Assembly: GCA_963851265.1 (NCBI GenBank)
Contig: CAWKNZ010000006.1
Span: 111,053-175,052 of the forward strand
Source: an uncultured Gemmatimonadales bacterium
GTDB lineage: Bacteria > Gemmatimonadota > Gemmatimonadetes > Gemmatimonadales > Gemmatimonadaceae
Reading direction: 5' to 3'
DNA length: 64,000 nucleotides
Position 1 is the first letter of the stretch. Every line of letters starts with the position of its first letter. The notes beneath the pieces were generated by a model. That model ran no database searches, was not told the origin of the DNA, and saw only the letters and a program-made list of their open reading frames with translations. Both the position numbers and the translations under genes were made by a program. Shown piece after piece: positions 27,009-29,324 of this stretch.

Positions 27009-29324
27009 ATGCAGCCGCACGTCCATCAGGTACCGCGCGTAGCTGCGCCCGCGGCCGACTTCCTGCCGCACGGCTACTGCTATCTCTGGAACAAGCCGCT
27101 GCTGCTGACGCACGTCACCGCGGACCTGCTCATCGGCATTTCGTACGTCGCCATCTCGGTCACGCTCGCACTGCTCGTGCACCGCGCGCGGCGTGACATC
27201 CCGTTCAGCGCGGTGTTCGTCGCCTTCGGGCTGTTCATCGTCACCTGCGGCATGACGCACTTCCTCGAGGTCTGGACGCTGTGGCACCCGGCGTACTGGC
27301 TCTCGGGCGGGGTCAAGGCGATCACGGCCGCGGCGTCGGTCGCCACCGCGGTGGCGCTCCCGTTCGTCGTCCCGCAGGTGCACGTCACGATTCGCGACGC
27401 GAAATCGGGGCGCGCGCGCGAGGTCGCCGCCGCGCGCGCGACCGCGCTCGAAGAGCGGAACGCGCAACTCGCGACGCAGGCGGCAGAGCTGGCCGCGGAG
27501 CGTGAGGCCGCGCGCGCGCTCGCCGAGCGCCTCGAACGTGTGAACGCCGACCTGCGGCGCGCGGAAGCCGAGGCCCGCGCCCACCTCGACGCGCTCGAAG
27601 CCACGTACCAGAGCGCGCCGGTGGGCCTGTGCGTGCTCGACGCCGACCTGCGATTCGTGCGCATCAACGCGCGCCTCGCCGAGATCAACGGGTCGACCGT
27701 CGACGCGCACCGCGGACGCGCGCTCGCCGAAGTCGTCCCGGCCCTGGCCGGGACGGCCGAACCGATACTGCGCCGCGTGCTCGCGACCGGCGAACCGGTC
27801 GTCGGCCTGGAGCTCAGCGGCGAGACCCCGGCCGCACCCGGTGTGCACCGCACGTGGGTCGAAAGCTGGTACCCGTTGCGCGACGCGACGGGGTCGGTGG
27901 TGGGCGTGAACGTCGTCGCGGAGGACGTGACCGAGCGACGTCGGGACGAGGCCGCGCGCCGGGCGAGCGACGCGCGGTACCGCGCGCTGGTCGAGGCCGC
28001 TCCCTTGATCGCGTGGAGTCAACGCAGCGACGGCACGATCGACTTTGCCAACGAGCGCTGGGCCGAGTACACGGGGCGCGCGGTTTCGGCGACCGCCGGC
28101 ACCCACTGGAGCGACGTCGTGCACCCCGACGACGCCGCGCGCGTGCGCACGCTGCGCGAGTATGCGACCGTGACCGAAGAGCCGCTCGAGATCGAGGCGA
28201 GGTTCCGCCGCCACGACGGCGCGTACCGCTGGCACGTGGCGCGCGTGGTGCCGGTACGGCTCGGCCCCACGGCCGCCGCGTCGCGCACCGCGAGCGTCGA
28301 CTCCGGGCCCGTGGTCGCGTGGTACGGCGCGGCACTCGACATCGAGGACCGCAAACGCGAGGCGGCGGAGCTGGCGCAGACGGTGGGCGAACTGCAGCGC
28401 GCCAACGCCGAGCTGGCGCGCCTCACGGACGACCTGCGGACGACGAACGAGGAGCTCGAAGCGGCCAACGTCGAAGCGCGCGCGGCACGCACCGTGGCCG
28501 AGCACGCGAGTGAGGCGAAGACGCAGTTCCTCGCGACGATGAGCCACGAGCTGCGCACGCCGCTCAACGCCGTGCTCGGCTACGTCGACCTGCTCGATCT
28601 CGAGCTGGCCGGCCCGCTCACGGGCGCACAGCGCGGCTACCTCGATCGCGTGACGACGAGCGCGCGCCACCTGCTCGGGCTCATCAACGAGGTCCTGGAC
28701 CTCGCGAAAGTCGAGGCGGGGCAGATGACGGTCGCCCTGCAACCGACGGGCGCCAGGGCGCACGTGCTCGACGCGGTGGCCCTCATCGCCCCGCAGGCGG
28801 CACGCAAGGAGCTCGCGCTCGACGTCGCGGCCGGCGCCGCGGACGACGTGCGGGTCCTGGCCGACCCGGACCGCCTGCGGCAGGTGCTCGTGAACCTTCT
28901 GAGCAACGCGGTCAAGTTCACGGCACTGGGGGGTAGCGTGACCGTGCGGATCGATCCGGCCCCCGGGCCGGGTCCGCTGCACACCGTCGCCGGACGCGCG
29001 TTCGTGCGCGTCGACGTCTGCGATACCGGCGTGGGCATCCCGGCCGACCGCCTCGACGCGGTGTTCGAGCCCTTCGTGCAGGTCGAGGCCGCCGACGCGG
29101 ACCGGCCCGTCAACGTCTATACGCGCCGGCACGGCGGCACGGGGCTCGGGCTGACGATCGCGCGGCGCCTCACGCGGCTCATGGGCGGCGACCTCACCCT
29201 CGAGAGCACGCCCGGGCGGGGCTCGCGGTTCAGTGTCTGGCTGCCGCTCGCGCCGGCGACGCGCTTCACGCCCGCGTGGACGCCGGCGGTGCTGGACGCC
29301 CGGGCGTTAGGCGAACGCCCGTGA
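27009..29324 (+). CDS. Histidine kinase with an ethylene receptor (ETR1)-like 3-TM N-terminal domain, two PAS domains, HisKA and HATPase
   Basis: PHGYCYLW, ADLLIGISYVAIS, FIVTCGMTH and VKAITAAASVATA align by eye to the ETR1 binding domain; followed by PAS-PAS and MSHELRTPLNA. Confidence 0.88.
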   Translation: MQPHVHQVPRVAAPAADFLPHGYCYLWNKPLLLTHVTADLLIGISYVAISVTLALLVHRARRDIPFSAVFVAFGLFIVTCGMTHFLEVWTLWHPAYWLSGGVKAITAAASVATAVALPFVVPQVHVTIRDAKSGRAREVAAARATALEERNAQLATQAAELAAEREAARALAERLERVNADLRRAEAEARAHLDALEATYQSAPVGLCVLDADLRFVRINARLAEINGSTVDAHRGRALAEVVPALAGTAEPILRRVLATGEPVVGLELSGETPAAPGVHRTWVESWYPLRDATGSVVGVNVVAEDVTERRRDEAARRASDARYRALVEAAPLIAWSQRSDGTIDFANERWAEYTGRAVSATAGTHWSDVVHPDDAARVRTLREYATVTEEPLEIEARFRRHDGAYRWHVARVVPVRLGPTAAASRTASVDSGPVVAWYGAALDIEDRKREAAELAQTVGELQRANAELARLTDDLRTTNEELEAANVEARAARTVAEHASEAKTQFLATMSHELRTPLNAVLGYVDLLDLELAGPLTGAQRGYLDRVTTSARHLLGLINEVLDLAKVEAGQMTVALQPTGARAHVLDAVALIAPQAARKELALDVAAGAADDVRVLADPDRLRQVLVNLLSNAVKFTALGGSVTVRIDPAPGPGPLHTVAGRAFVRVDVCDTGVGIPADRLDAVFEPFVQVEAADADRPVNVYTRRHGGTGLGLTIARRLTRLMGGDLTLESTPGRGSRFSVWLPLAPATRFTPAWTPAVLDARALGERP

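Follow-up and report, generated by a model that had tools for sequence, protein, structure and literature searches.

The DNA analysed here is a 64-kb stretch of contig CAWKNZ010000006.1 from an uncultured Gemmatimonadales bacterium (the window, 64,000 nucleotides). It contains a gene for a sensor histidine kinase of 771 residues, the N-terminal domain of which is an ethylene-binding domain (EBD) of the type known from Arabidopsis ETR1. The protein is probably, if by no means securely, a Cu(I)-dependent sensor kinase for ethylene (or a small alkene) with an unlinked response regulator. The EBD has six of the seven ETR1 residues from which ethylene binding is predicted. At the seventh position, Pro36 in ETR1, the protein has a serine (Ser50), which is the marker of a subfamily and not a private defect.

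It is near certain that the EBD belongs to the ETR1-type family, and chance resemblance is excluded. Residues 31–124 match the Pfam model ETR1_N (PF25487) with 111.4 bits (E=2.5e-32, model positions 2–94 of 97; gathering score 27 bits). A profile comparison with the N-terminal domain of ETR1, suggested in an earlier note on this DNA, is thus clearly positive (111 bits at a cut-off of 27). For residue numbering the EBD was aligned with 244 relatives, with the receptor AzoEtr1 of Azospirillum brasilense and with the N-terminus of Arabidopsis ETR1. The numbering of the ETR1 sequence used matches the literature at each cited residue. A phmmer comparison with this N-terminus gave an E-value of 5.5e-13.

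The peptides of the three transmembrane (TM) helices and the codons at 27123, 27246 and 27258 named in the earlier note are exact in the sequence. ADLLIGISYVAIS begins at 27120, FIVTCGMTH at 27234 and KAITAAASVATA at 27315. Cys80 (codon TGC at 27246) and His84 (codon CAC at 27258) are spaced i/i+4. The residue-by-residue alignment agrees with the earlier proposal of an ETR1-type domain with serine at the Pro36 equivalent, and the spacing is identical to that of ETR1 (Asp to Tyr +7, Asp to Pro/Ser +11, Ile-Cys-His +3/+4). As the distance from Asp to Pro/Ser is +11 in both proteins, Ser50 is the Pro36 equivalent without ambiguity. All the other six predictor residues are present, and so are the equivalents of Thr68 and Lys91; they are 96–100% conserved in the 244 relatives. 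Tyr32, Ile35 and Ile62 are reportedly counted among the seven (by Wang in 2006). In TM2, Ile77 is conserved in 242, Cys80 in 240, Thr83 in 239 and His84 in all 244 relatives. Cys65 and His69 of ETR1 coordinate Cu(I) (PMC10266040, PMC13012798). Without Asp25, ETR1 does not bind Cu(I) properly or ethylene with high affinity; this residue also bridges to Lys91, which couples binding to output (PMC10266040). The Cu(I) site of Cys65 and His69 with Asp25, as assumed in the earlier note, is supported by the same paper.

Hydropathy places three hydrophobic stretches at about residues 31–58, 66–92 and 98–122. An AlphaFold2 model of the EBD (alignment of 112 sequences) has a mean predicted local distance difference test score of 84.6, with helices 29–60, 67–92 and 96–143. 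The last helix reaches the end of the modelled fragment. Since it spans residues 96–143, TM3 in the model continues unbroken into the cytoplasmic linker. A PDB sequence search with the N-terminal domain returned chance matches alone (E ~0.6), and the best PDB match of the AlphaFold2 EBD model in Foldseek had an E-value of 1.2. This agrees with the lack of a solved EBD structure: according to a 2026 review, the receptor transmembrane domain is understood from models and spectroscopy (PMC13012798). The positively charged loop HRARRD follows TM1, and for this reason the N-terminal tail is placed outside the membrane. Counted from the outer helix ends, Asp39, Cys80, His84 and Lys103 would lie in the outer half of the membrane. 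Ser50 (TM1) and Pro118 (TM3) would lie at about equal depth near the inner face.

The tail before TM1 contains a single cysteine, Cys24, which is conserved in 233 of the 244 relatives. It is part of the motif PHGYCYLW. Among 67 full-length relatives the His of this motif is invariant, and its Pro and Cys are at least 90% conserved. The pattern PHGxCYLW is near-invariant across bacterial EBDs with either Ser or Pro at the Pro36 position; plant ETR1 lacks it. Cyanobacterial receptors also have one tail cysteine, which has been proposed to form a dimer disulfide (PMC6682694). Speculatively, the outer-side His-x-x-Cys pair may serve as a dimer disulfide or in copper loading.

The kinase part is intact. 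The H, N, G1, F and G2 boxes were all found by motif scan, with the N box at residue 629, G1 (DTGVGI) at 672, the F box at 686 and G2 (GTGLGL) at 710. Together with the HisKA and HATPase_c matches, these boxes predict a catalytically competent histidine kinase. The solved proteins nearest to this part are active kinase cores, with PDB entry 4pl9 (ETR1) among the matches. NCBIfam has no EBD model, and its kinase-core matches (TorS, BarA, LuxQ) are far under their cut-offs; they indicate only a histidine kinase and nothing finer. Neither a GAF nor a receiver domain was found in the 771 residues by the Pfam scan. An exact-protein look-up with the whole protein gave no record.

To our knowledge, a working ethylene receptor has been demonstrated in just two bacteria, a cyanobacterium and Azospirillum. 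For the receptor of the latter, AzoEtr1 (525 residues, EBD-PAS-kinase), ethylene binding and the control of biofilm formation and root colonisation were shown in 2025 (PMC11819568). Its sequence was recovered from a replicon of strain Sp7 (2962–4539 of the recovered locus) and has Asp35 and Cys75 as published. The core EBD of the window protein is 46% identical to that of AzoEtr1 and 33% identical to that of ETR1, whereas AzoEtr1 and ETR1 share 37%. Our domain is thus nearer to AzoEtr1 than AzoEtr1 is to ETR1, and since both of these bind ethylene, this argues for an ethylene sensor. Both bacterial proteins have the PHGxC motif before the three-helix EBD, followed by PAS and then HisKA/HATPase_c, without a receiver domain. 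Asp, Tyr, Ile, Ile, Cys, His and Lys are common to both. On the other hand, AzoEtr1 carries the proline itself at the Pro36 position (SYYSIP) and Val at position 118, where the window protein has Ser50 and Pro118, and it has one PAS domain instead of two. Ethylene binding is proven for AzoEtr1 and predicted for the window protein.

SynEtr1 of Synechocystis PCC 6803 (slr1212/UirS/PixA) is likewise an EBD-histidine kinase that signals by phosphotransfer, as predicted here, and has a single N-tail Cys (PMC6682694, PMC11819568). It differs in its reported set of all seven residues including Pro, in a cyanobacteriochrome GAF photosensor between EBD and kinase, and in its partner regulator slr1213 (PMC6682694, PMC11819568). 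Arabidopsis ETR1 shares the EBD family, eight matched residues and a related kinase core. Unlike the window protein, it has Pro36, two N-terminal Cys, a GAF domain, a C-terminal receiver and a TM2-TM3 loop that is three residues longer, and it signals mostly via CTR1, not by phosphotransfer. The plant-type ETR1/ERS layout is absent here, two PAS domains following the EBD where plants have GAF.

The arrangement PAS-PAS-kinase in place of GAF, described in the earlier note, is borne out by Pfam; its presentation as a departure from the norm is not. All 67 full-length close relatives match ETR1_N, and 62–63 of them are histidine kinases. About 35 contain PAS, 29 are receiver hybrids and 5 contain GAF. 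EBD-PAS-kinase, as in AzoEtr1, is the usual bacterial layout. Nor is the gene as rare as had been presumed: HMMER, run exhaustively over 1.84 billion cluster representatives, recovered 7,914 members of the family at E <= 1e-3 and, with the stricter limit of E <= 1e-10, 5,405. The homologs of Deinococcus aquaticus and Eleftheria terrae are annotated just as 'ATP-binding protein', so the likeness to ethylene receptors is missed in databases.

The source of the DNA is a Gemmatirosa-like soil bacterium. The top EBD match is a partial protein of a metagenome-assembled genome (MAG) of Gemmatirosa sp. (90% identity), and the remaining part of this ortholog is found on a second contig of the same MAG. 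The gene order after the kinase is identical there (AidB-like acyl-CoA dehydrogenase, M1 peptidase, DUF885 protein and amidase; 80–89% amino acid identity), and the gene keeps a stable chromosomal position in Gemmatirosa. The EBD identity, the shared gene order and the GC content of the window (73%) bear out the Gemmatimonadota origin supposed earlier. The GC content at third codon positions of the kinase gene is 0.92. Public DNA runs containing the sequence are labelled soil metagenome only. The ratio of nonsynonymous to synonymous substitution rates (dN/dS) against the Gemmatirosa ortholog is 0.17 for the EBD, 0.12 for PAS1, 0.24 for PAS2, 0.16 for DHp, 0.18 for CA and 0.42 for the linker. 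None of the 10 replacements in the EBD affects a key residue. Because the ortholog order is kept, dN/dS is low and all kinase boxes are present, the kinase gene is regarded as functional and vertically maintained. A Cu(I)-dependent ethylene sensor kinase is favoured by the ETR1_N match, six of the seven residues, the confident three-helix fold and the intact kinase. It is further favoured by the dN/dS of the EBD, the kept gene order and the AzoEtr1-like EBD-PAS-kinase layout.

The corresponding mechanism, from copper binding and the identity of the ligand to the sign of regulation and the output, is predicted by homology only. The protein would be a dimeric inner-membrane kinase with the ETR1-type EBD as its input module. 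One Cu(I) per monomer would be held in the outer half of the helix bundle by Cys80 and His84 of TM2. Asp39 (TM1) would orient His84 and bridge to Lys103 (TM3). Ethylene, or a closely similar small unsaturated gas, would enter the membrane and bind to Cu(I). The resulting shift at the Asp39-Lys103 bridge would be passed through TM3 and the long cytoplasmic helix to the two PAS domains and the DHp/CA core. An inverse-agonist behaviour of bacterial receptors has been described (PMC11819568). By analogy to ETR1, SynEtr1 and AzoEtr1, the ligand would lower autophosphorylation of His513 (PMC11819568), and less phosphoryl group would then reach a response regulator whose gene lies elsewhere in the genome. 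A second, cytoplasmic input may come from the PAS domains. The features of the gene are listed in Table 1.

Table 1. Window positions of the sensor kinase gene, its domains and its key residues.
Feature	Window position	Strand	Basis
Whole gene, 771-residue EBD/coiled coil/PAS/PAS/HisKA/HATPase_c sensor histidine kinase	27009..29324	+	Open reading frame, ATG start, Pfam
PHGYCYLW motif, residues 20–27, tail before TM1 (presumably periplasmic)	27066..27089	+	Conservation in relatives
EBD, residues 31–124, three TM helices	27099..27380	+	PF25487, hydropathy, AlphaFold2
Asp39 (ETR1 Asp25), TM1	27123..27125 (GAC)	+	Asp in 240/244 relatives
Tyr46 to Ile49 (ETR1 Tyr32 to Ile35), TM1 pocket	27144..27155	+	Tyr 243/244, Ile 240/244
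Ser50 (ETR1 Pro36 position), TM1	27156..27158	+	Alignment of 244 relatives
Ile77, Cys80, Thr83, His84 (ETR1 Ile62, Cys65, Thr68, His69), TM2	27237..27260	+	Alignment
Lys103 (ETR1 Lys91), TM3	27315..27317	+	Lys 235, Arg 6 of 244 relatives
Pro118, near cytoplasmic end of TM3	27360..27362	+	Ser-type vs Pro-type comparison
Ala/Glu/Arg-rich helical linker, residues 125–201	27381..27611	+	AlphaFold2 helix; weak coiled-coil-type Pfam matches 129–203
PAS domain 1, residues 202–312	27612..27944	+	PF08448 PAS_4, two matched stretches, whole-protein E=5.9e-28
PAS domain 2, residues 323–418	27975..28262	+	PF00989 and PF08447
HisKA/DHp, residues 503–571	28515..28721	+	PF00512, E=2.1e-19
Phospho-acceptor His513 in H box HELRTPL	28545–28547	+	Motif scan
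HATPase_c, residues 619–748	28863..29252	+	PF02518, E=6e-30

Among the 244 closest relatives the Pro36 position is occupied by Ser in 189, by Pro in 30 and by Ala in 18. In the earlier note the change from Pro to Ser was taken as a possible defect. It is instead the majority state and is coupled to other signature changes. The nearest neighbour of a Ser-type sequence is again of the Ser type in 185 of 190 cases, and 30 of 32 Pro-type sequences pair with the Pro type. Position 118 in TM3 is Pro in 182 of the 190 Ser-type sequences, whereas Ile (16) and Val (11) prevail in the 32 of the Pro type. Position 60 is Ala in the Ser type and Lys in the Pro type, position 72 is Ala versus Cys and position 43 is Gly versus Ala. 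A residue is present at position 58 in the Ser type, where the Pro type has a one-residue deletion. Pro118 is invariant across the 67 full-length relatives. Inside the Ser group the Pro36 position alternates between Ser, Ala, Gly and Thr. Ser50 as a loss-of-function lesion was rejected, because serine is found subfamily-wide and the EBD is under purifying selection.

The Ser type spans at least five phyla (Gemmatimonadota, Nitrospirota, Verrucomicrobiota, Cyanobacteriota and that of the Beijerinckiaceae methanotrophs). Source names include Gemmatirosa, Gemmatimonas, Methylocella/Methylocapsa, Ca. Manganitrophus, Nitrospirae, Chthoniobacteraceae and cyanobacteria. The two other EBD loci of Gemmatimonadota both belong to the Ser type. 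In Acidobacteriota, 12 of 13 loci have the Pro type. Of the cultured strains, Kovacikia minuta CCNUW1 has the Ser type, Eleftheria terrae the Pro type and Deinococcus aquaticus the Ala type. Three EBD matches lie on the plasmid of Kovacikia minuta CCNUW1. The Ser-type kinases, exemplified by those of Kovacikia minuta CCNUW1 (plasmid pA), Methylocella/Methylocapsa, Ca. Manganitrophus, Chthoniobacteraceae and Gemmatimonas, share …YVAIS…, an LP ending TM3 and a HRARRD-type loop with the window protein (55–90% EBD identity). Their outputs differ and comprise the stand-alone EBD, the EBD-histidine kinase and the hybrid kinase with receiver. The EBD kinase on Deinococcus aquaticus plasmid pDATS01 (3854–5593) is an outlier: it has Ala at the Pro36 position and Arg where Lys is otherwise conserved, and it lacks the PHGxC motif.

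Several observations weigh against ethylene sensing by the window protein. Ser50 stands at the position where the P36L exchange leaves ETR1 with less than 5% of wild-type ethylene binding, according to the passage of PMC3212723 that cites Wang 2006. The same passage relates this Pro-to-Leu substitution to the insensitivity of tomato Never-ripe and Arabidopsis etr2-1, and describes Pro36 as highly conserved in known and putative ethylene-binding proteins. Pro is present in every proven ethylene binder that could be checked, the AzoEtr1 sequence having been read directly. The bacterial receptors reported as ethylene binders are all described with the full seven residues, among them SynEtr1, GeiEtr1 and GeiEtr2 (PMC11819568, PMC6682694). 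The Ser type differs at several more positions, so its specificity may be altered. No RNA run containing the sequence, and no evidence of its expression, was found. Furthermore, no receiver gene adjoining the kinase was found among all open reading frames of the window. AzoEtr1, by contrast, has a predicted receiver-only gene directly downstream (4457–4939 of the recovered locus; PMC11819568).

As no receiver gene is adjacent, the kinase is classified as an orphan, and the cognate regulator whose identification the earlier note suggested is not among its neighbours. The sole receivers of the 64 kb lie at about 10.2–12.5 kb, in a phytochrome cluster. The gene order is the same in the Gemmatirosa ortholog.

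The main rival explanation is judged unlikely, though it deserves serious weight: the Ser-type EBD would hold Cu(I), but its physiological signal would be something other than ethylene bound with the nanomolar affinity seen in plants. The domain might respond to ethylene with much weaker affinity or faster release, bind another Cu(I) ligand (another alkene, CO or an isonitrile), or report copper or redox status. The near loss of binding in the P36L variant of ETR1, as given in that passage of PMC3212723, is in line with this, although these mutant data concern Leu and not Ser. In the papers found, natural variation has been discussed only for Asp25Asn, where a working receptor has about 100-fold lower affinity (PMC10266040, PMC13012798). 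Serine also occurs in a coherent subfamily and co-varies with Pro118, Ala60, the position-58 indel, Ala72 and Gly43, and none of the tested receptors is of the Ser type. No Ser-type member with an ethylene test was found in the literature searched. Nor was a paper discussing the Ser variant found; the primary 2006 study and reviews of non-plant receptors lay outside this search and may cover it. However, the pocket residues Tyr46, Ile49 and Ile77, which are not copper ligands, are 98–100% conserved, and a sensor of copper or redox status would not obviously need them. The restriction of the Ser type to small residues (Ser, Ala, Gly, Thr) suggests that helix packing is kept, rather than a new contact made. 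That the Ser-type EBDs are Cu(I) gas sensors of a functionally separate class, their ligand kinetics or specificity being unlike those of the plant, SynEtr1 and AzoEtr1 type, is put forward as a tentative idea with a rather low chance of being right.

It is improbable that the three-helix domain is just a membrane anchor and dimerisation module, with the two cytoplasmic PAS domains reading the real signals. Both PAS domains, located between membrane domain and kinase, are well conserved, and PAS1 is the most constrained part of the protein. Yet the intramembrane Asp, Cys, His, Lys and Thr are invariant over thousands of proteins, which is unexpected of a mere anchor, and the dN/dS of the EBD is low as well. 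EBDs also occur without PAS domains. Stand-alone EBD proteins of 176–182 residues are present in MAGs of Beijerinckiaceae methanotrophs (P0017, P0018 and P0026; Methylocapsa/Methylocella), and EBD-receiver fusions without a kinase have 202 residues (P0071–P0083; P0072, the one read, is of the Pro type). Because such stand-alone and PAS-less forms exist, the EBD counts as an independent sensor module.

That hydrophobic helices match by chance, or that the gene is decaying, was rejected and is practically out of the question: the Ser50 difference and the absent linked regulator, and nothing more, would speak for it, against the Pfam E-value, an intact frame with intact kinase motifs, purifying selection in every domain and the kept ortholog order.

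Regarding the whole claim of a copper-dependent ethylene or gas sensor, what stands from the earlier note is thus the true EBD family with its Asp, Cys, His and Lys; one of the seven residues predicting binding is missing. Its link to plant cues fares worse. A phytochrome cluster and a mannan-type locus are indeed present, but the link is weak, the two loci being about 16 kb and at least 10 kb away. Unrelated housekeeping genes lie in between, and the neighbours that are conserved encode peptidases and an acyl-CoA dehydrogenase; hence a plant-cue regulon has no specific support.

The upstream neighbour of the kinase gene encodes an M16 peptidase. Downstream follow the AidB-like acyl-CoA dehydrogenase, the M1 peptidase, the DUF885 protein, the amidase and a ROK regulator. 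No second EBD copy was found among all open reading frames of the 64-kb window, and an Rfam scan of 26000–29600 revealed no RNA element. The space upstream of the kinase is long (760 bp) because a decayed relic of a molybdopterin oxidoreductase gene is situated there (26369–26768, minus strand). A special regulatory region was considered for this gap and rejected, since it contains the pseudogene. The pieces of the relic match residues 2–23, 102–119, 137–195 and 191–234 of the product of locus L082 in differing frames. The Fe4S4 region (residues 24–101) is deleted and no sequence beyond residue 234 is present. In the Gemmatirosa MAG the molybdopterin oxidoreductase gene is intact (at least 250 residues).

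The bacteriophytochrome cluster (7191–12463, plus strand) starts with a heme oxygenase gene (7191–7865), followed by BphP (7879–10206; PAS_2-GAF-PHY-HisKA-HATPase). A probable small receiver reading frame at about 10220–10679, whose frame matches CheY, and a receiver-GAF-histidine kinase (10514–12463, true start possibly later) complete the cluster, all on the plus strand. A glycan-utilisation locus of the mannan/galactomannan type occupies 39408–57253. It encodes a ROK/MarR regulator, a SASA-family esterase, a SusC-like TonB-dependent receptor, an SSF symporter, a GH130 mannoside phosphorylase, a GH3 enzyme and a GH27-type alpha-galactosidase. Further upstream of the kinase are genes for a phosphoketolase (XFP; 15383–18316, minus strand) and a large BNR/Sortilin-Vps10-repeat protein (19386–22871, plus strand). 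The listed starts of several upstream genes (e.g. the M16 peptidase at 23179) are probably too early, as judged by long Arg/Pro-rich N-termini.

The protein is of a known kind, a predicted EBD kinase with a common bacterial layout; new is its phylum, for which no characterised example is known. In agreement with the earlier note, no paper tying ethylene receptors to a Gemmatimonadota protein was found, although reviews of non-plant receptors might contain one. Gemmatimonadota is a soil phylum with few cultured members, and ethylene builds up in soils and around roots. If the protein is an ethylene receptor, the gene would carry this receptor type into the Gemmatimonadota. The part most worth pursuing is the Ser-type subfamily, with Ser at the Pro36 position and Pro in TM3. 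In this subfamily, nature has varied a residue that is treated as essential. Its behaviour bears on whether the seven-residue rule for microbial ethylene sensing is too strict, and on the natural tuning of affinity and kinetics at the copper site, as for Asp25Asn. As the transmembrane domain has no experimental structure, the natural covariation also constrains structural models. If the Ser type is indeed a distinct class, a large group of soil bacteria would be either overlooked or wrongly labelled in predictions from the seven residues.

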